From a virus, in the UHGV virus genome UHGV-0134179: a stretch of DNA of 24,963 nucleotides. One strand, given 5' to 3'. The notes beneath the pieces are model-generated. The model did not search any database. It had not been told where the DNA came from and saw only the letters and a list, made by a program, of their open reading frames with translations. Of this stretch, positions 204 to 24,963 are shown in pieces. The position numbers and the translations under genes are program-made. The stretch's first letter is position 1, and each line of letters starts with the position of its first letter.

Positions 204-311
204 GTGATAGCTATGGAATGGCCTCAGAAAAAATGGGTCCTTCCTGAGACTTTTGTAAGGCACGGGCATTGCGCGCCGCAGTGTTTTTGTAGCTACGGGT
301 TTTCAATTTGA

Positions 312-493
312 TTCACACTTGCGCACTTTCACACTTGTCACTTTTTGTTATGGGTTTGTTAATCGTGAGTGGTGGCAAGGGATTGCGGGAAGTTTCGATA
401 ATTTTTGATTCACAGTTTGATTTACACATTCAGTCTAAAAAGTGTGAACCCTTCACACTTTGTGTGCACAGTCGGTGTGCAGGGTTCACACTT
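312..493. repeat. array of TTCACACTT repeats (direct and inverted) upstream of the Nu1-like gene; candidate cosB/pac-type binding sites
   Basis: Exact TTCACACTT at 312-320, 328-336, 452-460 and 485-493; inverted copy AAAGTGTGAA at 439-448 forming a perfect palindrome AAAGTGTGAA-CCC-TTCACACTTT (439-461); degenerate copies at 409-417 and 422-430; TGTGCACA palindrome at 463-470. Confidence 0.6.
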
Positions 494-513
494 CGTCAGC
501 GAGGTAGGTTGTT

Positions 514-1098
514 ATGTTAATGTCAGTAAGCCAGTACGCCGAGCACAGCGGCATGAGTCGCCGGTCATTTTACAACTGGGAAAGTAAGCAGGGATTCCCG
601 GCTCGGGTTGACGGGAAGATTGACCAGGAGGCTTGCGATGCTTACCTGGCCCGTTACCGTGACAGTCATGATCCGCGCGCTCAGAACGCGAAAAGCAAAG
701 CGGTGGTATCCGATGGCCGCATTGTTGCTGGTAGCACTCTGGTAGAGATGAGTGTTGCGGAGATTAAACGCATCATAGCGTCAGGCGTCACCAAGGTGAC
801 CGGGATGGATCCGGACGAGCGAGCCCAGGTTGCTGCAAAGGCCGTAGAGCTGTTTGTAAGCGAAGGCCCCTATAACCCGCCTGTAACGTTCGGCGGTTAC
901 CGGCTGTCGATTGTTGAAACGCCAGATGATGAAATCGGGCAGATCATCGCGGGCGGTGCGTTTGGTCTGTCTGCATATGATGTGATCTACGAGTGCCGGG
1001 ATTACACCCTGACTCTCATGAGTGATGAAACTGAAGAAACAGCCATGCGGAGGGTTATACCTTCGTTGCTGTATGCCCTGGCCGACGATACCAACTAA
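514..1098 (+). CDS. Nu1-like small terminase subunit / winged-HTH DNA-binding protein (194 aa)
   Basis: N-terminus SQYAEHSGMSRRSFYNWESKQGFP follows the recalled lambda Nu1 HTH pattern (KKQLADIFGASIRTIQNWQEQGMP). GAGGTAGG RBS before the ATG. Sits immediately downstream of the repeat array. Product call is recall-based, not computed. Confidence 0.6.
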   Translation: MLMSVSQYAEHSGMSRRSFYNWESKQGFPARVDGKIDQEACDAYLARYRDSHDPRAQNAKSKAVVSDGRIVAGSTLVEMSVAEIKRIIASGVTKVTGMDPDERAQVAAKAVELFVSEGPYNPPVTFGGYRLSIVETPDDEIGQIIAGGAFGLSAYDVIYECRDYTLTLMSDETEETAMRRVIPSLLYALADDTN

Positions 1099-1128
1099 AT
1101 CAAAGTGTGCCAGCGGGCTCCTGTTATT

Positions 1129-1156
1129 CCAGCCCTTCGGGGCTGGCTTTTTATTT
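1129..1156 (+). terminator. rho-independent terminator downstream of the Nu1-like gene
   Basis: 7-bp GC-rich stem CCAGCCC / GGGCTGG with TTCG loop (1129-1146) followed by CTTTTTATTT. Confidence 0.6.
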
Positions 1157-1200
1157 CGTTACTCAGGGTGTAGTCGGTTATCTGTAGGACTGGAGAATGT

Positions 1201-1392
1201 ATGGTGTTAAAACAGAAGAAAATCGAGGCGGTAATTGAAGAGCTGGCCCGCCTGCAGGGGCATGAGTTAAACGCCGCCGATATGCTGGAGTTACGTTGCA
1301 GGGTTGCGGGAACGCTCGCAGCAAAAGAACGGCATCGTCGGCGCATGACTGCCCCAGAATATCATTGGCGGAAGCCAGCACCTCGCCGATAA
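1201..1392 (+). CDS. hypothetical small protein (63 aa), possibly an orphan or gene remnant
   Basis: ORF with GGAGAA RBS 5 nt upstream of ATG; basic C-terminus; no recognisable family; lies at the boundary of the AT-rich insertion. Confidence 0.3.
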   Translation: MVLKQKKIEAVIEELARLQGHELNAADMLELRCRVAGTLAAKERHRRRMTAPEYHWRKPAPRR

Positions 1393-1688
1393 ACTCTTTC
1401 TTCTGGCTGGTGCTGGTGGTCAAATTCCGAGCGATACCGATATTCCTGTATCGTTTTTAACCGCGTCGCTAAAAGATATGCGGTTAACGAAATGACAGTT
1501 AAACTGGCTGAGTTATTGCATATTTACCATCCCGTAAGCACCGTACACTGCATCTATCTACCAAACACATCAAGTATGACGGATTGTGGATTGTTTACTG
1601 GTTGAACAGCATTGTAATGCTCGGATTATCAGCAAAACCCGACTTACAGATTTGATCGAATTTCTGACTTTGCCGCAGCATCTACCAT

Positions 1689-2819
1689 CTATTTTCTTTG
1701 AATTCCTTTTCCCGAGTTTAAATCTGGATTGTTTATCAATAGCTTTCCATCTATAAGTAAAGCATCTATTTCATCTTGCTCCATTACATGAGATAGAATG
1801 TCAAAGCTATTGTATTTGGAGTTAAGTAAATCATCTAGCTTGGCATTTATTCTCTCGAGAAAGTATTTGTGCTGAGTTAATTCATTTTTCAATTTTTCGC
1901 GTTCATAACCATTCAAATTTAAGTTGGTGTCAATCTCATGCTGTTTTTCTTCGGTGAAGTTATTGAAAGCAGTTAGTCGATAATTCATCAGTGCTTCTAG
2001 TTCGCACTTGACTCTAAATATGAAATCTTTATGCCTATTGATATTGCTATCAGAGTAGTTGCCGCTAATTATTATTTCACAAATTCTACCCGCAACTAAT
2101 CGTTCAAAAACTGAGAAAACAGAGTGCATTAGGACTTTAGACTCGAAGAATTTATCAGGGTAATAGCATAAATTATTGCTTTCTATATAATAATTGAACC
2201 CAGTAGAGTAGGCTTCTGGTTCAGATTTTAATAATTGCCTGAACCGTTCTCTTTGTAGTATATATATTTCAAAGCAATCGTCATTGCACCTAACTATTCG
2301 GGATAAATATATATCCCTCATTGAATGGTCAAACGCTAGATCTGGGATACTTCTGAAACTATCTACAATTGTTTCTGAAACCCTTTCAAATCTTGATTGC
2401 TCTTCAATAATTTGATGATTTCTAATGTCAGAACAAAGATTAGATATATAGGATAAGTTATTGTAAATAGAACCATACAGACTTATACCAAGTAAGGCTG
2501 GCATAATCCCATATGTATTATCTATATTTACTTTTTCCAGTCCTGCAGTGTCACTTATTCTTCCTTTCTCAACACAGGCGGTCGTTGACAATCCACGTAA
2601 CTCACCACTGCTAATATTCATTAGGTCTCTGGATGAGTCTTTTTTAAAAACAACTCTGTAAAAAGTATCATTTTCTGATCCAGATGTATGCATTTTAAGA
2701 ATTTGATTGAATACATAATCCAATGGAGAATTAGATATGAAAACTGGGTTGGGAATCAATTTCTCCAACATTGGGTTATTTTTAAATATGACCTGAATAC
2801 TCTTGGGTAAATCTGACAT
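1689..2819 (-). CDS. hypothetical protein (376 aa), cargo gene of unknown function
   Basis: Long ORF in clearly AT-rich DNA, opposite strand to the phage late operon. AAGG RBS upstream. No signal peptide or TM segment seen; no Walker or other catalytic motif recognised. Confidence 0.7.
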   Translation of the reverse strand: MSDLPKSIQVIFKNNPMLEKLIPNPVFISNSPLDYVFNQILKMHTSGSENDTFYRVVFKKDSSRDLMNISSGELRGLSTTACVEKGRISDTAGLEKVNIDNTYGIMPALLGISLYGSIYNNLSYISNLCSDIRNHQIIEEQSRFERVSETIVDSFRSIPDLAFDHSMRDIYLSRIVRCNDDCFEIYILQRERFRQLLKSEPEAYSTGFNYYIESNNLCYYPDKFFESKVLMHSVFSVFERLVAGRICEIIISGNYSDSNINRHKDFIFRVKCELEALMNYRLTAFNNFTEEKQHEIDTNLNLNGYEREKLKNELTQHKYFLERINAKLDDLLNSKYNSFDILSHVMEQDEIDALLIDGKLLINNPDLNSGKGIQRK

Positions 2820-2846
2820 TGTGCTTACCTTTTTGAAGTTACGATG

Positions 2847-3311
2847 TTATATTCTAGGGCCTTCTAGGTGACATTGGTATGATGCTCCTCCATGTTCGTT
2901 AATAAACCAATCAATGGCATGCCCGGAAAGTCTGTCGATTGAAACGTGTGATATCTGATACCATGATTCACCGTCTCTTGATGCCTCTACAATATATTCT
3001 ATTTCTTTATCGTTTATCACCGGTTTTATCACCCGGAATAAAGTATCGTCCCGTCCCTGCGATTCATTATCGACGGACACAATCACCCCTCGGCTAAACC
3101 AGTTTGCTGTTCTACCATTTCCTGCGCACGTATCACCTGAGTCAATTCGCATATCAAAGCAGAGTTTATTATTCAATAGATAAGGTACAGGCCAAATTCC
3201 GGAGTCTGTGTTGCCATTTTTATCCTGAGGATCGCACACTATGAGGGATGTTCCTGATGCCATGAACGGCAGAGTGAACAATAGCGCAAAAGACAAAATT
3301 TTATAGTTCAT
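2847..3311 (-). CDS. secreted Cys-containing protein (154 aa precursor), cargo gene of unknown function
   Basis: Start taken at the internal Met (3311), giving a signal-peptide-like N-terminus MNYKILSFALLFTLPFMASG. GGTGGTGA RBS just upstream. Four Cys in the mature part. The track ORF extends to 3392 but the extension translates the RBS region. Confidence 0.6.
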   Translation of the reverse strand: MNYKILSFALLFTLPFMASGTSLIVCDPQDKNGNTDSGIWPVPYLLNNKLCFDMRIDSGDTCAGNGRTANWFSRGVIVSVDNESQGRDDTLFRVIKPVINDKEIEYIVEASRDGESWYQISHVSIDRLSGHAIDWFINEHGGASYQCHLEGPRI

Positions 3312-3409
3312 AAAATCACCACCCACATCAATAACTCCGCTTTTTCGGAGCAGCACTGTGACCGTGCCGCCTTCATCGCGCCTAAGAGCCACCGCCAGAC
3401 TTAACCTTA

Positions 3410-3437
3410 ATTATGTCCCGATAAACAATTACTGCAA
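3410..3437 (-). promoter_or_regulatory. candidate sigma70 promoter for the reverse-strand cassette
   Basis: On the minus strand: TTGCAG (-35, plus coords 3432-3437), 16-nt spacer, CATAAT (-10, 3410-3415). Pattern match only. Confidence 0.25.
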
Positions 3438-3544
3438 CATCGTATCCCAGACTTAAAGGATATTTTACCTCTTCTCTGCCTCATCCCACCTCCCGAACTA
3501 AGGGACTTCGTTAGGGACTACAAGTCACTTTGATTTCGAATTAA

Positions 3545-3712
3545 GTCATTAAATATCATTATGATAACAACGATGTCTTGAACTGGGAAGAGATACTTGA
3601 TCAACGCCAGCGGGAAATTGAGTCCTGCCTGAAGCGCGGACTTCCATTACCGAGCTGGGCGCAGGCGGATCAGTTCGCCAGCCAGACAATTACCGATCCG
3701 GAGGAAAAGTGA
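3545..3712 (+). pseudogene. 3' remnant of a portal-like gene (about 55 codons, no start codon)
   Basis: Open frame without an ATG ending in TGA at 3710-3712, overlapping the GTG start of the protease (GTGA) as the portal/protease junction does in lambda. Translation ...NDVLNWEEILDQRQREIESCLKRGLPLPSWAQADQFASQTITDPEEK. GC-rich, unlike the adjacent cassette. Portal identity is inferred from position. Confidence 0.4.
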
Positions 3713-17741: not shown

Positions 17742-18527
17742 ATGAGAAAAGTTGGCAGTACAACTGACACCGCTGATGTTAATGGTGAATACACTAATGG
17801 TAATGTCGCTAATGGTATTTCACCGACAATAATTAATGCTGAGATGATGAATACCTTTCAGCGTGAGCTGGTAAACGTTGTTGAAGGCGCGGGGCTTGAG
17901 CTTGATCCTGATGATGATTCACAGGTTCATAAAGCGATTGGTGGCGGTCGCCTGCTTAATATTGTCACATTTACGAAGTCAGGGACTTACACTCCAACTA
18001 AAGGGACGAAAAGAGTGCGGGTGAAAGTTTGGGGAGCGGGGGGAGGTGGCCAGAATGCTCCAGTTAATGTGGGCGCATCTGGTGGTTGTGCTGGTGGGTT
18101 TTCGGAAGGGTTATTTAATATTTCTGATAACGAAACTATATCTGTGACGATAGGTACTGGTGGCAGTGCTGTTGCTGCTGGTGTCGCGTCTAAAGGCGGG
18201 AACGGTGGTGATACAAGGTTCGGGAGTTTAATCTCAGCTACTGGAGGGAGTGGTGGCGGGTCTACAGTTCCTGCTGGAGGTATCGGAAGTGGCGGGAACA
18301 TTTTAAATATTACTGGCGGAATATCTCAAGGTGGTCTGTATTATGGTTCTGATGCTTTTATTGGCGGGGCTGGAGGATCTGCATTTTCATCAACGGGTGG
18401 CAATGGCCACTTCGGTAGTTCTGGCGATGATGGCGGTTTCCCCGGCTCAGGTGGTGCCGGGGGGAATGGTAACTATTCATCAGGAAAAGGAGCGAATGGT
18501 TTAGTTTACCTTGAAGAGTTTTCCTGA
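17742..18527 (+). CDS. tail fibre protein with glycine-rich C-terminal domain
   Basis: 261 aa; N-terminal ADVNGEYTNGNVANGISPTIINAEMMNTFQRELVNVVEG resembles conserved fibre N-termini; the C-terminal ~170 aa are dominated by GG/GGxGG repeats. Confidence 0.65.
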   Translation: MRKVGSTTDTADVNGEYTNGNVANGISPTIINAEMMNTFQRELVNVVEGAGLELDPDDDSQVHKAIGGGRLLNIVTFTKSGTYTPTKGTKRVRVKVWGAGGGGQNAPVNVGASGGCAGGFSEGLFNISDNETISVTIGTGGSAVAAGVASKGGNGGDTRFGSLISATGGSGGGSTVPAGGIGSGGNILNITGGISQGGLYYGSDAFIGGAGGSAFSSTGGNGHFGSSGDDGGFPGSGGAGGNGNYSSGKGANGLVYLEEFS

Positions 18528-19597
18528 TTATTTTTGCTTTGAGCGTCCGCCCTTATTTTTGCTCTAATTTTAATTAGTGGCTTGTCTATTAATATTACAC
18601 AAACGATCCCAAGTGCAATTGATATTGGGTAGCCTAATAAAAAGATAGATAAACCACGATTTTCACCACCAATAGCAAGCCATGCTAGAAATCCGCCAAA
18701 ATATTGACAAAGAAAAATTGGATAGGCCAGATCACCAAACCACTTGAGTATTTTCTCAAGATGTATGTTTGTCTTTATTTTTAATAATGCCAGGGTTGTA
18801 AATAATGCTATTGCATTATTGGTGTAGTAAAGTATTATGTTGTACTGACCTAATGCATTAATTGTATATAAATACCAATTGGTAATAAAAATCCCAATGC
18901 AGATAAATGTTATTAAAAAAGCCTTGTGTGGAGAAAGATACATAGCTTTGAACTTTCTATGGGCAAAATAACCCAGAGAACCCATGCTAAAAGGAAGTGT
19001 TGCAGCAAGGAATGGGAAATACGCCATATCAAAAGAATGGTGAACTACATATACGTAAGCATGATAAAGCAGTGAAAGCAGAATCGACGTAATGGCTGTA
19101 AATTTATTTCTGGCTATGAAAAGCCACAATAAAAAATAACATGTTATCTCAACACCCACTGACCATGATGATGTGACTATTCTGAATCTATTACCATCAA
19201 TAGCAAAGTGATAAATGGATGAAAAGGCACCGAATGGATTTGCTACAGCATTATCAGAAAGGAAAGCCCAGGGGAAGATTAAGAGGTTTCCTAATAAATC
19301 TCCAGGCAAGAAATTGCCTGTCCAGTTTGAATGGAATTCCTTTGCGGATGGAATTAATTTTATAATAAGAAAGCCCATGACGAGAAAAAATATATATGCC
19401 GGGAATAACCTCAGTATTCTATTTTTCCAAAACATAGAGAAGTTGAACTTGTATGTTTCATGCAAAATGTATGTTATTAAAAAGCCACTAATAACATAGA
19501 AGCAATTCACTGCAAAGTTGCCAAGTGCAGGTATGCGAGCCGTTAAGTGAAAAGCAATGACGCACGATGCCAAAAAAAACCTTATTAGGCCAAGCAT
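18506..19597 (-). CDS. acyltransferase family 3 membrane protein (O-antigen acetylase-like lysogenic-conversion candidate)
   Basis: 363 aa, AT-rich, highly hydrophobic with many predicted TM segments. N-terminus LGLIRFFLASCVIAFH aligns with the AT3 GLRG...H motif and is followed by FYVISGFLI. Opposite strand to the fibre genes. Confidence 0.8.
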   Translation of the reverse strand: MLGLIRFFLASCVIAFHLTARIPALGNFAVNCFYVISGFLITYILHETYKFNFSMFWKNRILRLFPAYIFFLVMGFLIIKLIPSAKEFHSNWTGNFLPGDLLGNLLIFPWAFLSDNAVANPFGAFSSIYHFAIDGNRFRIVTSSWSVGVEITCYFLLWLFIARNKFTAITSILLSLLYHAYVYVVHHSFDMAYFPFLAATLPFSMGSLGYFAHRKFKAMYLSPHKAFLITFICIGIFITNWYLYTINALGQYNIILYYTNNAIALFTTLALLKIKTNIHLEKILKWFGDLAYPIFLCQYFGGFLAWLAIGGENRGLSIFLLGYPISIALGIVCVILIDKPLIKIRAKIRADAQSKNNQENSSR

Positions 19598-19860
19598 TAT
19601 TTTATCTCCGCGCCAATATCGCGCATTTTATATATTACATTGTTAAGTTGCTCATCAGACAGAACAAGCTGAGCTGCAATGTAAAACAGTATGTGTTTTG
19701 ACATTACCCTGGGGCTCTCTCCGCCAGTGTATTTCCGCCATTGGCTATCGCTGGCTACACCTGCGAGCCCTGCCATTTGGTTTCCGGAGTAATTTAGTGC
19801 GGATTTCAGTCTGGCTAAATCTTCCTGCGTTGGAGGGGTGTATTTATTTATTAATATCAT
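19597..19860 (-). CDS. small XRE-like HTH protein co-transcribed with the acyltransferase
   Basis: Start taken at ATG 19860 (the track ORF starts at GTG 19884). HTH-like segment SGNQMAGLAGVASDSQWRKYTGG. Its TAA overlaps the acyltransferase ATG (TAATG at 19595-19599). Confidence 0.5.
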   Translation of the reverse strand: MILINKYTPPTQEDLARLKSALNYSGNQMAGLAGVASDSQWRKYTGGESPRVMSKHILFYIAAQLVLSDEQLNNVIYKMRDIGAEIK

Positions 19861-19961
19861 TCTCTTATTTAACCGTTTAAACACGTATGGCGATGTTAGC
19901 CCTGAAGGGGCGGGGCGTCAATCTTAATTGCTTCATTGAAAAGATGAAGACAGGAACAGGT

Positions 19962-21977
19962 ATGGACAAAAGATATAATACCGGCAATCCAAGACCCTCA
20001 AATAGCATGAAGGATCTGAATGATAATGCCCTGGCGTACGATGATTTCCTGAACAGCGAAAGCGATACTTTTATAGATCGTTTTGGTAACGCCCAGGATA
20101 CGATGATTGGGGCTACTAAAAAAATGGCAGCTGCTACCGACGCTGTTATTGATGAAGCCCGCCAAAACCTGATCCCTCTGAGCAAGCAATACATGACGCT
20201 TGCTGATGCACAGGCGGATATAGCGAATATCCCTGAAGGGAGCACAACGTATTACCGCAGCCCTGATGATAGTGCGCTTGCTATTGAGGTTATCAACAAT
20301 AGCGGTGCGCTGTCAGCGACGGGCAGAGTAATGCCATCTCAGGGGTATGTAGACAGGGTGATAAACACCTCAACAGCCAACGAAAATATTGTAATCACTC
20401 TTGACGCTGACGCCAGCCCCGTAGAGGTTCGAGATGATTTTGGCGGGGTGAATATTCCGGGGGTTCCTGCTCCAGTACAGGATATTTTGCAACAGGTGCA
20501 GAAGAGCGCCGCCCCGGCCATCCTTCGTCTGACTGACGCTGAGAATGCCGCATACACCTCTGTTGACGAATATGGAGACATTTATGCACCGGAGATGCCG
20601 TCCAGTATTCAACGTTTATTGCTGGCGATGAAAAAGGATGTTGATAAGCTTAGAAAGCAAGGGATGATTCTGGATGCCAGAGATTGCGGGCTCAACACGA
20701 AAACCGGTGAAGACTCACAGCGTGCAATTCAGCGCGGATATAACTGGTTGTCCGGGAATGGCGGCGGCCATCTTTACGTCCCGGCTGGCTATTTTAAAAT
20801 GGCGATCCCTGTTGTTCCTCGTTCCGGCGTCGCCTTACATGGTGCCGGCATCGGTGCGACTAATTTTCTTCCTTACGGTTATTTGTCTGCATTTGAGTAT
20901 GTAGGGGACGAAACATACATCGAAAACCTTCAGTTTACCGACTTCACCATTGATGGCGAAAATCAGCAACTTCATCCGACAAGAGGTTATATCCCTAACA
21001 TTAAGGGAATTCTCCTCCAGTATTACCGGAATACTGTTTTTGACCGCATCAAAATCCAGAATACCGGTGCAACAGGGTTAGGGACGGACATGCCGGATAA
21101 TGTGTCTATTATGCGCGTGGTCACTGAAAACTGCGGCCGTCTCGGCGTTGTCGGTGATTTAGGGGCTTCCGGTATTGGGCTGGGAACCGGCTTCCTTAAC
21201 AGTGAGCCTATCTTTGTTTATCAGACAGTGAATAAACACAATAAGAACTACGGTATATTTTACGAACCACAGCGCGGTGTGGGTGTTGCCCGTGACACCA
21301 TCGCAGTTGGAAATGTGTGTGAGTACAATCATGCCGGAATGGCCGATTGTGGAATAGATGGCCTGATCGCTATTGGCAATAACCTGCGTTTCAATGAATA
21401 TGGGTTTAAAGGCTCACCGGGTACAAACGGTGCGGGAAACCCCGGAAACCGTGGCATTCTGAAGGACAACCATATCAACGGTAATACTAAACATGGTATT
21501 TATCTTTATACGGATAAAGGATTGGCTATAGAGGGTGAATATAATTACTCCGGCAATCGTATAGCTGATAACGAACTCGACGGCATACATGTTGAATATG
21601 TTCATACGTCTGCGAAATTACTGAACAGTAAGTTTGCGGATAATGAAATTTATCGTAATGGTCGTCATGGCTTTAATTTTGTCAGCGGCAATCTGGTCAA
21701 TGTGGACATTATGAATAACCGACTCTGGAACAACGGACGTACAGAAGTGGGGGATGCCATAGCTGGTGCAGCAGATATGATGAAATGTGGAATTACTGGC
21801 AATAAAATCCGCGACACGCAGGATGCGGCTACCCAGCAGTATCCGGTTAATCTCTCTGGGGCACTGACCGACATGGATATTTCGTTCAACCATTGTGTCG
21901 GAAATGCCCGAAATACTTTAAATCTGACCGGTGCACAAACTCGTGTAACCACACTTAACAATCCCGGGATCGCATAA
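19962..21977 (+). CDS. tailspike protein with parallel beta-helix (polysaccharide depolymerase-like) domain
   Basis: Start chosen at ATG 19962 (AGGA RBS 6 nt upstream); in-frame alternatives at 19887 and 19944. Repeated beta-helix-type units rich in N/G/D (NHINGNTKHGIYLY, GNRIADNELDGIHVEY, ADNEIYRNGRHGFNF, MNNRLWNNGRTEVG). Confidence 0.75.
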   Translation: MDKRYNTGNPRPSNSMKDLNDNALAYDDFLNSESDTFIDRFGNAQDTMIGATKKMAAATDAVIDEARQNLIPLSKQYMTLADAQADIANIPEGSTTYYRSPDDSALAIEVINNSGALSATGRVMPSQGYVDRVINTSTANENIVITLDADASPVEVRDDFGGVNIPGVPAPVQDILQQVQKSAAPAILRLTDAENAAYTSVDEYGDIYAPEMPSSIQRLLLAMKKDVDKLRKQGMILDARDCGLNTKTGEDSQRAIQRGYNWLSGNGGGHLYVPAGYFKMAIPVVPRSGVALHGAGIGATNFLPYGYLSAFEYVGDETYIENLQFTDFTIDGENQQLHPTRGYIPNIKGILLQYYRNTVFDRIKIQNTGATGLGTDMPDNVSIMRVVTENCGRLGVVGDLGASGIGLGTGFLNSEPIFVYQTVNKHNKNYGIFYEPQRGVGVARDTIAVGNVCEYNHAGMADCGIDGLIAIGNNLRFNEYGFKGSPGTNGAGNPGNRGILKDNHINGNTKHGIYLYTDKGLAIEGEYNYSGNRIADNELDGIHVEYVHTSAKLLNSKFADNEIYRNGRHGFNFVSGNLVNVDIMNNRLWNNGRTEVGDAIAGAADMMKCGITGNKIRDTQDAATQQYPVNLSGALTDMDISFNHCVGNARNTLNLTGAQTRVTTLNNPGIA

Positions 21978-23395
21978 TGACGACTATCTTACAAAGTAAT
22001 ATGAAAATTAAAGGTAATGTGAAGTTACCTTCAGTTAACGCCCCTCTCCCGGATGGAGCTAATTTATTCGCAGACTTCTCCTCTGGCCGTTACGTCATTA
22101 AACATGCCAGTGGTAATGTAATACGATCGGCATCTCTGACTGACATTTTGTCATTTAGTCGTGCCAGTACGGCTACAAGAGTAGGCAAAAACGGACTGAT
22201 TGAGTATCTTGGCACTGATGAACCAGCGATTGATTATCACCCTGTGACGCATGAATGCCTGGGATTGCGCGTAGAGTTATCATCCATTAACCGTATTGCC
22301 TGGTCTCAGGATTTCACCAAAACAGATAGCTGGACGCCATCCGGTATAACGCTGACAGCGAATGATGCTGTCTCTCCTGACGGTAACACCACAGCAACCA
22401 AAATTATTGAAAAAGCTGGATCCTCTGCAGTGCCCAGAACGCTCCTGGCGCTGACAACCAGCGACGCTACAACTGCCCCGTATACCTTCAGCATCTTTGC
22501 TAAAGCAAATACGGCCGGGGTTATTCAACTGGCCGCTCAGGGAGCTGTGTCACCTGTTGCCTTTGCGAACTTCGATCTTCGGAGTGGTAAAATTGGCAAG
22601 GTGTCTTCAGGTTCATCAACCATTGGGATACTACAGGTGACGATGGAGGAATATATTAATGGTTGGTATCGCTGCGCCATTACCATAACACCTTCATCTG
22701 CGGCCTCTCCTCAGTTTACGTTTGCGCTGGTGAATAATGACAGCAGCTCTGACGCGATTCCTTCATATCTCCCCGATACACCAAAATCTGTATGGATTTG
22801 GGGGGCGCAGCCAGAGCGCAAGGACGGTGCGACATCTTATATTCCCACGGCCGGCGCAGAAGTCACCCGAAACAGCGACATGTGCACCACGCCATCCACA
22901 ACGCAGTTTATTTCTGCTGCCGCAGGTACCGTAATGACCAGCGTTATACATCCACATAGCCTGCAACTGCTCAGCGGTGCCTATGGATCATTATCCTGCG
23001 CTGTCGTACTGGATAACACAGTCGAGGGGCCAAACATCCGGTTTTCATATCGTCCTCCGTCAAAAGGTGCTGCTGAGGGGGCTGCTCTTGGCGTGGCGCC
23101 TGATACAACAGGGGTTGCACAGAATCTTGAGATTCCCAGCATGGCATCAGTAAGAGACAATGATCAGTCATGCATATTCGCCTTTGACGGTAGCGCGATG
23201 ACGACAAAACTGTTTGATGGTTACAACTGGTACTCTCGCTCTGTTAGCGCATTCCCGCCGGCGCTTTCACGGTTGTGTATCGGTCGCTCGTATATGGGTG
23301 CAACGAATTACTTTAACGGACACATCAGGAAAATCATCTACTGGCCCACTGCGTTAGGCAATGCTGAAATGGAGGAGATTCTCTCTTATCAGTGA
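21977..23395 (+). CDS. tail fibre / receptor-binding protein with C-terminal LamG (ConA-like) domain
   Basis: 472 aa; ATG overlaps the tailspike stop (TAATG). C-terminus YFNGHIRKIIYWPTALGNAEMEEI matches the LamG_3-type motif F.G.IDEVRIYNRALSAEEI. Confidence 0.6.
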   Translation: MTTILQSNMKIKGNVKLPSVNAPLPDGANLFADFSSGRYVIKHASGNVIRSASLTDILSFSRASTATRVGKNGLIEYLGTDEPAIDYHPVTHECLGLRVELSSINRIAWSQDFTKTDSWTPSGITLTANDAVSPDGNTTATKIIEKAGSSAVPRTLLALTTSDATTAPYTFSIFAKANTAGVIQLAAQGAVSPVAFANFDLRSGKIGKVSSGSSTIGILQVTMEEYINGWYRCAITITPSSAASPQFTFALVNNDSSSDAIPSYLPDTPKSVWIWGAQPERKDGATSYIPTAGAEVTRNSDMCTTPSTTQFISAAAGTVMTSVIHPHSLQLLSGAYGSLSCAVVLDNTVEGPNIRFSYRPPSKGAAEGAALGVAPDTTGVAQNLEIPSMASVRDNDQSCIFAFDGSAMTTKLFDGYNWYSRSVSAFPPALSRLCIGRSYMGATNYFNGHIRKIIYWPTALGNAEMEEILSYQ

Positions 23396-23444: not shown

Positions 23445-23786
23445 CTACTTCAATTCGAATTTATCAGAGAGGTAAGAGAAAATCTTTTTGCCTTTTTCAG
23501 TGAATTTTCCATCTTTAGTTAATAAATCATATCTTTTTAAAGTGGTTATTGGTGCACCAATTAAGTAGCCAGATTCAACCAATCGCTCAATGTCGTGTGG
23601 TATGTAGCCCCAATCGGTAAAGTTATAATCTTTATTACCATTTTTCATGTAATATTCAAAGTAGTCTTGTATCGTATCTAATACGCCATCATCAGGCTTT
23701 AAATCTTCGTTAAGCTCTTTAATGAAAACATCAAAGCTGTAACCTGTCTTAGGTTTGATGGCACATATATAAACTTTTTTATTCAT
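23445..23786 (-). CDS. hypothetical small protein (113 aa), cargo
   Basis: AT-rich ORF with AGGAAA RBS; Tyr/Asp/Lys-rich; no family recognised; downstream partner of the 246-aa gene. Confidence 0.55.
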   Translation of the reverse strand: MNKKVYICAIKPKTGYSFDVFIKELNEDLKPDDGVLDTIQDYFEYYMKNGNKDYNFTDWGYIPHDIERLVESGYLIGAPITTLKRYDLLTKDGKFTEKGKKIFSYLSDKFELK

Positions 23787-23917
23787 GTTATTTCCTGTTA
23801 TATTTATATAGCGATTGGTGGGGGCTAGAAATTTTCGTGCATCTTAAATAGTCGAGTTAGTATAAAGGGTTCTGGGCGGTTGATACTGTAGTGCCCAGGC
23901 AACTGGTGTACTATGAA

Positions 23918-24658
23918 CTATTTATTAGCAATATTGTCGTAAAAAAATTTTTGATTTTGTATTCTCAAAAGTGCTTCACTTAAGTCGAATTTTTTAAGTC
24001 TTTGATTATCCATGCCAGCATTTAAAATTAATGCTAATGTATAAGTTGAATTGATTTTCTCATCACTCAGCGGAGATATTCTATCTGGGAGATCTGATAA
24101 AATGGCAATATTTAAAAAATGTTTATATTCCTCTCTGAGTCTATTTAATATTGTATTTATAATCACCATAACTTCCTGTCCATATTGGATGGCTTGTTTT
24201 TGATCTGGTATTAATCCTTTATGAATTACATCGTTTCTAAAACTTACGCTTTTTTTACTAAGTAGTAATGGTTTTTCTTTTAATTCGGTAAAGTAAAGGA
24301 ATATAAAAGCACCTAATTGCCTTTCAGATTGGCTGGATATTTCCTTCCATGTATTAATGAAGGACTCTAACTCTATATCTTTGCTGAGGCATATTGTTTT
24401 GATAAAGAACTCATAAAATCTTTCTAGTGCAGATGTGAACGATGAGACAGCTTCTCTATAATATCCATCAATTATTGCATGAGCTCCTATTTCAAAGAGG
24501 ATCTCAAATTTTTGGTTCATCAAGTCGAGAATATTAGCATGTCCGTTGGGGCATGTGAATTCGTAGCTCCAATCATTTTTAATTTCAAGTTTTGAGGGTA
24601 AACATTCTGTCTCAGAATCCTGCGATGAGCATTCAGAACAATATACATGGAATTTCAT
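23918..24658 (-). CDS. hypothetical protein with N-terminal zinc-ribbon and RNxxxH (HEPN-like) motif (246 aa), cargo
   Basis: AGAGGA RBS; Cys7/Cys10 (CSEC), Cys19 and Cys36-Pro-Asn-Gly-His40; FRNDVIHKG at residues 140-148 (DNA 24221-24238) fits the HEPN Rx4-6H signature. Motif-level evidence only. Confidence 0.6.
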   Translation of the reverse strand: MKFHVYCSECSSQDSETECLPSKLEIKNDWSYEFTCPNGHANILDLMNQKFEILFEIGAHAIIDGYYREAVSSFTSALERFYEFFIKTICLSKDIELESFINTWKEISSQSERQLGAFIFLYFTELKEKPLLLSKKSVSFRNDVIHKGLIPDQKQAIQYGQEVMVIINTILNRLREEYKHFLNIAILSDLPDRISPLSDEKINSTYTLALILNAGMDNQRLKKFDLSEALLRIQNQKFFYDNIANK

Positions 24659-24840
24659 TGGAATCCTCTTTGAGATCTACAGTGTTGGGCTGATTCTACA
24701 AGCTTATCTAAAAGGCAGTGGTCAATAAGCAATCGATCTTTTATGTACTATAGCGCAGAAAGAGTGTTTTTCATACGGGAAATTTGGCTTTGTTGAATAA
24801 ATCAGCTTCAGGACGAGTGACTCTGTAGCTGACCGGGTTT

Positions 24841-24963
24841 TCAGGCAATACGCACGCTTTCTGGCATACCAGCCTTCGTTATTTTATTCAGCGCTCGTAC
24901 CAGGGCCATAGCCTCCGCAACCTGACCATCGTAGTCACGCAGCGTCAGTGAACCCCCGAACAG
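24841..24963 (-). CDS. hypothetical protein, C-terminal 40 codons only (5' end beyond the window)
   Basis: Minus-strand open frame from the window edge to TGA (plus coords 24841-24843), translating ...LFGGSLTLRDYDGQVAEAMALVRALNKITKAGMPESVRIA; GC-rich like the phage backbone. Confidence 0.3.
   Translation of the reverse strand: MFGGSLTLRDYDGQVAEAMALVRALNKITKAGMPESVRIA

Follow-up and report, generated by a model that had tools for sequence, protein, structure and literature searches.

What is a gene for a membrane-bound acyltransferase doing between two tail genes, on the opposite strand and directly behind a gene for a small putative DNA-binding protein? The question is raised by the virus genome UHGV-0134179, analysed here as a stretch of 24,963 nucleotides that is referred to as the window. 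In it, a gene for an acyltransferase-3 (AT3) protein at 18506..19597 (-) follows a gene for an 87-residue protein with a predicted helix-turn-helix (HTH) fold of the XRE/Cro type at 19597..19860 (-), and both are antisense to the flanking genes, which encode a Gly-rich fibre and a β-helix tailspike. The original prediction, made from the sequence alone, saw in this pair an O-antigen acetylase that blocks phages with the same depolymerase specificity as the adjacent tailspike, under unusual and possibly phase-variable control. Our best explanation for the whole, held with a confidence slightly above even, is an autoregulated moron unit, in which the HTH protein would control its own promoter and the AT3 protein would be the cargo, acting on a surface glycan.

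The acyltransferase and its small partner

The AT3 protein has 363 residues and a single Pfam domain, Acyl_transf_3 (PF01757; E=1.4e-15, 57.6 bits against a cut-off of 31), which spans residues 4-336 and profile positions 6-323 of 326. It also matches phrog_3333, annotated 'O-acetyltransferase' (E=9e-22), and is of the AT3-only type, lacking a fused SGNH domain. By Kyte-Doolittle hydropathy, residues 1-336 contain 9-10 distinct hydrophobic segments. The motifs were compared in an alignment of 26 sequences, these being the window AT3, its relatives, three other HTH-linked AT3 proteins, and the Oac proteins of phages Sf6 and phiV10. In this alignment, R6 and H17 (R/K-X10-H, in the first transmembrane helix, TM1) are nearly invariant, and R60 and R63 (RXXR) are invariant, Sf6 and phiV10 Oac included. 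V30, F33, S37 and G38 (FxxISG, which is FYVISGF in the window) and W145, E150 and Y154 (W145S..E150..Y154) are invariant or nearly so. The R/K-X10-H motif in TM1 and the RXXR motif in the first cytoplasmic loop are shared and functionally essential in AT3 proteins (PMC9558356). Judged by its sequence, the protein is a polytopic acyltransferase with intact catalytic motifs. It falls into a sequence cluster of 314 members. A tblastn search of 50,697 phage records returned only a 29%-identical Vibrio phage match and weak fragments, with neither the Sf6 nor the phiV10 Oac among the matches; a sequence profile search of the PDB found no solved relative, and no paper came up in a literature search on WP_000901073, the accession of the E. 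coli HS protein. It is worth adding that a neighbouring SGNH/esterase tailspike was considered as the missing transferase partner of this AT3-only enzyme, and rejected because the spike belongs to the virion and is encoded in the late operon, and that of the window lacks an SGNH domain.

The small gene was drawn mechanically as an open reading frame (ORF) of 95 codons with a GTG start (19597-19884, -). However, all 87 database homologues are about 87 residues long and align from the methionine at 19860, and the real start is therefore the ATG at 19860, not 19884. The mechanical ORF of the tailspike (19887-21977, 696 residues) is similarly too long when set beside the E. coli HS annotation and the contigs with the same arrangement, where the gene starts at 19962. 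With these two starts, the divergent intergenic region comes to 101 nt (19861-19961). With the start of the small gene so corrected, the AT3 and HTH genes lie where the original prediction had placed them. The translational overlap that it described (TAATG, 19595..19599, -) can be read directly: the minus-strand junction is ...GAG ATA AAA TAATG CTT GGC, base 19597 is common to the stop and start codons, and a GGAG Shine-Dalgarno sequence lies about 9 nt 5' of the AT3 ATG. The HTH gene is unannotated in RefSeq for E. coli HS (NC_009800; L001:13199-13562, loci other than the window being given by our L numbers) and for Ec1117, and several metagenome calls (L105, L106, L108 and L109) cut it to 59 residues, starting at the internal M29. 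Annotation pipelines therefore miss or truncate it systematically.

The name HTH holds for the predicted fold of the small protein, and fails at the level of Pfam. None of the Pfam HTH models reaches its threshold (the best, HTH_31, scores 13.8 bits against 27, with E=0.075), the best match in a profile search of PDB sequences is AcrIF24 at E=0.086, and the protein belongs to phrog_20491, annotated 'unknown function'. The AlphaFold2 model has a pLDDT of 90.8 and shows a five-helix fold resembling that of the lambda repressor. Its fold matches include BswR, Aca2, C.Kpn2I, HigA2, Aca1, P22 c2 and the 434 repressor. The model thus supports an assignment as an XRE/Cro-fold HTH at fold level, though not at the level of Pfam sequence models. 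Judged from the register, residues 38-45, DSQWRKYT, form the recognition helix, and W41, K43, Y44, T45, G46 and G47 are invariant in the HTH family.

Conservation of the pair

Of 5426 complete E. coli genomes, 32 carry the AT3-HTH pair with a nucleotide identity of 98-99%, in each case in the chromosome; the commensal reference strain HS, whose AT3 gene is ECHS_RS10305, is among them. In the assembly collection, the exact AT3 protein turned up in at least 53 blocks. Ten independent copies were compared, nine with the window AT3 allele and one from Klebsiella, which aligns over the promoter and HTH gene only. All ten have an intact HTH ORF, and all nine an intact AT3 ORF. Compared with E. coli HS, the ratio of nonsynonymous to synonymous polymorphism (pN/pS) is 0.09 for AT3 and 0.28 for the HTH gene, the latter reaching up to 0.42 in the lineage that lacks the small transmembrane (TM) gene described below. 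Comparison of the HTH gene with homologues of 65-72% identity gives a pN/pS of about 0.2-0.3, with synonymous sites saturated, and across the E. coli and Klebsiella copies the protein has 0-3 amino-acid changes. Given that the pair recurs in 32 genomes, with intact ORFs in the copies compared and a low pN/pS, it is more than a chance arrangement.

Promoter and candidate operator

A sigma-70-like promoter, TTGACG-17 nt-TAACAT, lies at 19893..19921 (-), about 30 nt 5' of the HTH start. It is identical in 10 of 10 copies, the Klebsiella twin included, and is positionally homologous to a conserved cassette promoter of related loci, TTGACA-N4-TAGCACCAAAGGGGCTAttAT. In the family as a whole the cassette promoter takes the form TTGACA-N4-TAGCACCAAAGGGGCTA-ttAT, the spacer being filled by a 17-nt palindrome whose last two bases start the -10 element. 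The exact palindrome TAGCMCCNNNGGKGCTA is found in 44 of 101 loci, once per locus and always in the promoter spacer. In L007, L015, L028 and L035, which have no small TM gene and carry cargo 3', the cassette promoter is directly upstream of the HTH gene. The equivalent sequence in the window, a degenerate 17-nt palindrome and putative HTH operator, is at 19897..19913 (-). An Rfam scan of the window and two cassette loci gave no match.

The residues just before the invariant QWRKYTGG were compared with the palindrome sequence, locus by locus, and the two vary together. ASNS before QW goes with TAGCACC-N3-GGGGCTA (18 of 19 loci), DGR with TAGGCCC-N3-GGGCCTA (5 of 5), and GDH or GGE with AGACCC-N3-GGGTCT (5 of 5), while AGGQ goes with TAGCCCC-N3-GGTGCTA and close variants in 10 of 17 loci and SGNN with TAGCCCT-AAAA-GGGCTA and close variants in 5 of 7. 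Of the evidence on the matter this covariation is the strongest, and it suggests that the palindrome is the operator of the HTH protein in the family. Repression is implied by the location of the palindrome between the -35 and -10 elements, and for the wider family a spacer palindrome that covaries with the recognition helix thus points to autorepression.

The HTH leader and its cargo in other prophages

From Enterobacterales, Pseudomonas, Burkholderiales and Neisseriales, 80 genomic loci with HTH relatives were fetched, together with several contig look-ups and one sequenced phage. A small tblastn reference panel assigned only a minority of the 80 loci to the tail or the lysis side of a prophage. 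A gene for a glycan-modifying protein abuts the HTH gene in at least 13 Enterobacterales loci. In homologous loci the cargo gene is adjacent to the HTH stop or overlaps it, the distance being -19 to +12 nt in most. As identified by Pfam, the cargo is AT3 in the window, L097, L007, L102, L015 and L030 (and in L013, at +460 nt), a glycosyltransferase in L019 (GT2) and L022 (GT4), a hexapeptide acetyltransferase in L025 and L028, and a Wzy_C protein (O-antigen ligase/polymerase-like) in L035 and L038; the downstream cargo ORFs in L020, L023, L026 and L037 have no Pfam match. The HTH family that leads these cargoes is 55-72% identical. In L007, L015 and L030 the AT3 proteins are only 20-25% identical to the window AT3, with HTH proteins at 65-72%, and divergent AT3 proteins behind similar HTH proteins imply that the cargo is interchangeable behind a conserved leader. 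The coupling of a regulator to the acetylase, which had been thought unusual, is therefore nothing of the kind: the HTH family abuts glycan cargo in at least 13 loci, and an HTH-AT3 cluster was already published in 2020 (PMC7556043).

In most loci, from Enterobacterales to Burkholderiales, a small TM gene of 51-60 codons lies 35-45 nt upstream of the HTH gene on the same strand (L003-L006, L010-L014, L016-L033 and L041-L092; for example L013:4787-4960 and L102:4790-4963). The protein starts with an amphipathic helix and ends in a TM segment, and its consensus is ..TxAELEKIHAEIAKLMAETxKLNRExxWYPxxxAxxLIGAVAT... It belongs to PHROG 6330 (unknown function), has a faint resemblance to XhlA-type 'hemolysin', and has no match in Pfam; the PADLOC defence models match neither it nor the AT3 and HTH proteins. 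A tblastn search found the gene in L102, L013 and L014, and did not find it in L001 and L002 (E. coli), L103, L104 and L108 (contigs of the window arrangement) or L096-L098 (Klebsiella). By this comparison the commonest form of the cassette includes the small TM gene, and the window has lost it.

Further features of the cassette were noted in these loci. In about 35 of them, a perfect terminator-like hairpin, GCCCC-N4-GGGGC followed by a T-run, is found about 31 nt before the HTH ATG (L003:5960-6000, L030:4965-5000). This hairpin between the small TM gene and the HTH gene may be an attenuation point inside the cassette, in which case the HTH protein would be made only via read-through or an internal start. 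Upstream of the small TM gene there is a conserved 5' leader, GAGGTAGCG-N5/6-CGCAGCCCG..CCCGAAAGGA (for example L013:4745-4765), which has no Rfam match. It contains a hairpin of 7 bp, one pair of which covaries (GC 10, CG 8, AU 7). In six species of Photorhabdus (L029, L031-L034 and L036), a cassette of small TM and HTH genes precedes the chromosomal nhaA gene by about 170 nt, and has its own variant of the palindrome, TAGCCCT-AAAA-GGGCTA. It may be a domesticated copy outside a prophage.

Taken further, these observations raise a broader proposal, which we put forward tentatively and at somewhat less than even confidence: that the HTH gene, the promoter palindrome and (usually) the small TM gene make up a portable platform that represses itself, is widespread among prophages of Gamma- and Betaproteobacteria, and carries interchangeable glycan-modifying genes (AT3, GT2, GT4, hexapeptide acetyltransferase and Wzy-like). 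If this is true, prophages would have in it a leader cassette dedicated to seroconversion and comparable to the acr-aca loci. The small TM protein could then be one more effector, for instance by inhibiting O-antigen assembly in the host or by excluding superinfecting phages.

Proposed function of the unit

In the explanation that we favour, an HTH-then-AT3 transcript would start on the minus strand from its own sigma-70 promoter (19921-19893) and run against the late operon. The HTH protein would bind the palindrome in the spacer of this promoter and repress its own synthesis, in the manner of Aca and C proteins, so holding the cargo, a polytopic membrane protein, at a steady, low and tolerable level. 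In the lysogen, the AT3 protein would transfer acetyl groups across the inner membrane onto a surface polysaccharide, most probably the O-antigen, and the acetylation would alter the cell both in its antigens and in its receptors for phages. In the lytic cycle, the HTH-AT3 transcript would be opposed by late transcription running through the unit. The promoter and HTH gene together would make up a portable leader, joined to other glycan-modifying cargo in related prophages. The observations on which this scheme is built are the genes, their motifs and fold, the selection on them, their synteny, the diversity of cargo, and the palindrome with its covariation; from them we infer transcription from the window promoter in the lysogen, DNA binding, repression and the acetyl acceptor. 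For the AT3 protein, acetylation of a surface glycan with an effect on phage adsorption would be the most reasonable function by analogy, because the antisense placement among tail-fibre genes is as in Sf6, phiV10 and the Serratia phage BZS1, and because the AT3 motifs are intact. In prophages of Klebsiella, Pantoea and Pseudomonas, too, homologues of the AT3 subfamily are found in this antisense slot next to a fibre gene.

Several results weigh against this explanation. The AT3 protein is only 17% and 19% identical to the Oac proteins of Sf6 and phiV10. BLASTP aligns it to Sf6 Oac at E=0.002 over a 44-residue region only, that of the TM2-loop motif, and finds nothing significant with phiV10 Oac, and no NCBIfam model matches either the AT3 or the HTH protein. 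An identical AT3 protein stands beside different tailspikes, and a serotype-specific acceptor is hard to reconcile with this unless the target sugar is common to many hosts. The AT3 homologues of Pantoea and Pseudomonas have no HTH gene with them, from which it follows that the enzyme does not depend on the HTH protein. As for the regulation, the promoter has 9 of 12 matches, which is not significant alone, and the scan found no enrichment of promoter-like sites in the region. No convincing intrinsic terminator was found 3' of AT3. The palindrome in the window (CCGCCCC-TTC-AGGGCTA) is degenerate on the -35 side, with 3 mismatches to the exact form, and is likewise not significant alone, and the recognition helix has D38 in place of the usual N (N38D). 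Given this palindrome and D38, the window HTH may bind weakly or not at all. The two may be a co-evolved weak pair or the operator may have decayed, and both readings stand.

The acceptor may also be something other than the O-antigen. An acceptor common to many hosts (enterobacterial common antigen, lipopolysaccharide core, capsule, periplasmic glucans or peptidoglycan), acetylated as a general change of the envelope, is in our view rather unlikely, although AT3 proteins do modify many envelope glycans (PMC9558356). It would explain how one AT3 allele can stand beside many spikes, in hosts with different insertion sites, and it fits with an AT3 gene that stays intact in a prophage without functional terminase and portal genes. 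However, no similarity to any named family was found, NCBIfam having returned no match; every characterised phage-borne AT3 in such a genomic position acts on the O-antigen; and the other cargoes of the HTH leader (Wzy-like proteins and glycosyltransferases) are typical O-antigen converters. If the acceptor is a sugar common to many serotypes, this would account for one enzyme serving phages with many tailspikes.

A second alternative concerns the HTH protein, which could be an orphaned antitoxin-like or immunity partner of the missing TM protein, and so a relic that lends its promoter to AT3 and does not regulate it. This too is rather unlikely. It would be in keeping with the arrangement in most loci, where the HTH gene follows that of the tail-anchored 51-60-residue protein at about 38 nt, often without any cargo, with the presence of HigA-type antitoxins among the fold matches, and with the degenerate palindrome. 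The HTH gene is nevertheless intact and under purifying selection (pN/pS 0.28-0.42) in a lineage that has no small TM gene, its stop/start overlap with the cargo has been kept, and neither protein has a PADLOC match.

The locus has some practical bearing. Phage-borne modifiers of the O-antigen alter serotype, vaccine epitopes and phage susceptibility, and so bear on the typing of E. coli and Klebsiella and on phage therapy. The analysis adds an uncharacterised AT3 subfamily, carried by about 0.6% of complete E. coli genomes, HS included. That the gene has been kept intact in a prophage without its terminase and portal genes suggests that it may benefit the host. The HTH family offers a concrete candidate operator-repressor pair and a recurring slot for glycan-modifying genes, which could serve to mine new seroconversion genes.

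Exchange of the neighbouring tail genes

The original prediction went further, and had the AT3 protein acetylate the exact glycan that the adjacent spike cuts, giving immunity to phages with the same depolymerase. Such masking of a receptor is documented for Sf6 Oac and for BTP1/OafB (PMC9558356), the phiV10 Oac is annotated in this sense, and the window AT3 does adjoin a spike gene. We nevertheless think a matched pair quite improbable. An identical AT3 (100% at the amino-acid level) and an identical HTH are found beside a 671-residue β-helix spike in L104-L107 (the window arrangement), and beside an unrelated 949-972-residue Lipase_GDSL_2 spike in L103 and L108. Copies of the pair in E. coli that are about 98% identical stand beside spikes with at least four other annotations, namely sialate O-acetylesterase, SGNH/GDSL hydrolase, CotH kinase family, TolB family and 'phage tail protein'. 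An identical AT3 beside unrelated spikes implies that the acetylase and the depolymerase next to it are not matched in specificity. Furthermore, homology to every E. coli copy stops inside the N-terminus of the tailspike, at 20260-20343, and breakpoints at about 20300 imply that the specificity of the spike is swapped independently of AT3.

The limits of the exchange are best seen in a Klebsiella pneumoniae prophage of the same lineage (L097), whose baseplate genes have 99% nucleotide identity to those of the window. Nucleotide homology ends at 18012 and resumes at 19401. The HTH protein is 97% identical and the promoter identical, with AT3 at only 49%; the spike is 97% identical over residues 1-115 and unrelated in the remainder, and the fibre is about 98% identical over residues 1-98 and about 35% in the remainder. 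The AT3 allele has thus changed along with the C-terminus of the Gly-rich fibre, and not with the regulator block. Read from these alignments, 18012-19401 (the fibre C-terminus and most of AT3) is one exchangeable block and the receptor domain of the spike past about 20340 is another, and 19401-20338 (the 5' end of AT3, the HTH gene, the promoter and the spike anchor) is the conserved linker between them.

It was also noted that in many relatives the AT3 gene is head-to-head with a spike that carries an SGNH, GDSL or sialate-O-acetylesterase domain (L001:13563-15557, L002:9563-11443, L103:2787-5705 and L108:54-2903). An acetylase and a deacetylase would then be encoded by one element, compare the speculation for BZS1, but the window spike has no such domain.

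Phase variation of the acetylase, by Dam/OxyR switching or slipped-strand mispairing, can be set aside as highly improbable: it is known for the Salmonella gtr/oafB operons (PMC9558356) and a homopolymer does exist, but there is no GATC in 19861-19961, the GATC sites being only deep inside AT3, and the sole homopolymer, T8 in AT3 codons 7-9, is of constant length in 9 of 9 independent copies with the window allele, with all ORFs in frame.

The surrounding genes and the host prophage

The ORF map and Pfam bear out the antisense placement between fibre and tailspike. The Gly-rich fibre gene is at 17742..18527 (+), an ORF of 261 residues with the Pfam domain Gly_rich_2, and its 3' end overlaps the convergent 3' end of AT3 by 22 bp (18506..18527, from the ORF coordinates), as it also does in E. 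coli HS. The tailspike gene is at 19962..21977 (+) and has the Pfam domain Beta_helix; its anchor, to about 20340, is conserved and its receptor domain is exchangeable. Further out, Pfam, PHROG and NCBIfam identify baseplate J and Mu gp48 genes upstream, and a protein with a GTA_spike_fiber domain downstream. The GC content is 35% for AT3, 43% for the HTH gene and 53% for the baseplate genes. The downstream protein has 472 residues (21977-23395), its start overlapping the tailspike stop, and matches NCBIfam GTA_spike_fiber (E=5.5e-35) and phrog_5939, a tail protein. Next to the spike, this is a second receptor-binding protein, exchangeable on its own.

The window represents a prophage whose head is lambda-like and whose tail is Mu-like; from about 3582 to about 20300 it has 98-99% identity with E. 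coli prophages. No near-identical DNA was found among sequenced phages. The right-hand 4.5 kb gave no near match in the 5426 complete E. coli genomes other than an IS903-like end; the unmatched part, about 20400 to about 24770, comprises the spike receptor domain, the 472-residue protein and a pair of genes for proteins of 113 and 246 residues. The large terminase, gpW and most of the portal gene of related E. coli prophages are missing, and their place is taken by a segment of low GC content (33-36%) at 297-3581; of the portal gene, about 130 nt at its end survive ahead of the S49 protease at 3709. Two antisense genes of unassigned function lie within the segment, at 1689-2819 (no family match) and 2847-3392 (phrog_26680). 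Because these packaging genes have been replaced, the prophage, which is of Escherichia type and defective, looks unable to package DNA. Near the other end, a second low-GC segment (31-33%, 23445-24963) holds the antisense pair for the 113- and 246-residue proteins; the latter belongs to phrog_19381 and has a weak CARF+HEPN-like match in PADLOC (E=0.0025). An IS903/IS5-like end starts at about 24770.

Comparison with known systems

The Oac proteins of Sf6 (OacA) and phiV10 are AT3-only proteins of about 330-360 residues, with the R-X10-H, FxxISG, RxxR and WSxxxE motifs, as in the window. In both of these temperate phages oac is antisense to, and convergent with, the preceding tailspike or fibre gene. 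Both genes are annotated as O-antigen acetylases, that of phiV10 with a role in superinfection immunity, and their substrates are known. They differ from the window in having no HTH gene upstream of oac, and Sf6 oac has its own annotated promoter.

Salmonella OafB (GtrC family 2) and BTP1 GtrC are prophage-associated AT3 O-antigen acetylases whose product blocks the tailspike (PMC9558356). Enzymes of this type are AT3-SGNH fusions under Dam/OxyR phase variation, whereas the window AT3 has no SGNH domain and its promoter no GATC.

The Aca proteins and the C proteins of restriction-modification systems resemble the window HTH in fold, but the latter is no member of either group at the sequence level, and no anti-CRISPR or restriction-modification genes were found near it in Pfam, PHROG and PADLOC scans. 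What its family accompanies are enzymes that modify glycans, and the small TM protein. The inverted repeat that such proteins have in the promoter of their own operon is present in the 44 loci of the HTH family with the exact palindrome, and degenerate in the window.

The closest likeness is to the p26-p25-p24 cluster of Serratia phage vB_SspM_BZS1 (BZS1; MT843275; Int J Mol Sci 2020;21:6709, PMC7556043). There, p24 (AT3) directly follows p25 (an HTH protein 67% identical to that of the window), and the cluster is antisense between a tail fibre and a large tail/spike protein, in a Mu-like baseplate module. BZS1 differs in that it keeps p26, a gene for a protein with a C-terminal TM segment that was not found in the window, and in that its neighbouring tail protein has a predicted deacetylase, where the window spike is a β-helix. 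In the BZS1-related Serratia locus L007, the AT3 protein is of a different subfamily, 25% identical to that of the window. The authors of that work proposed O-antigen acetylation and protection against superinfection; they had 'no clue' on p25 and p26, and noted three such pairs, each by an acetyltransferase, in S. proteamaculans 336X (PMC7556043). The HTH-AT3 layout has thus already been published for BZS1, and the window locus is a fairly ordinary conversion gene. It is the covariation of the operator, the breadth of the cargo and the wide taxonomic spread of the HTH family that appear to be new descriptions.

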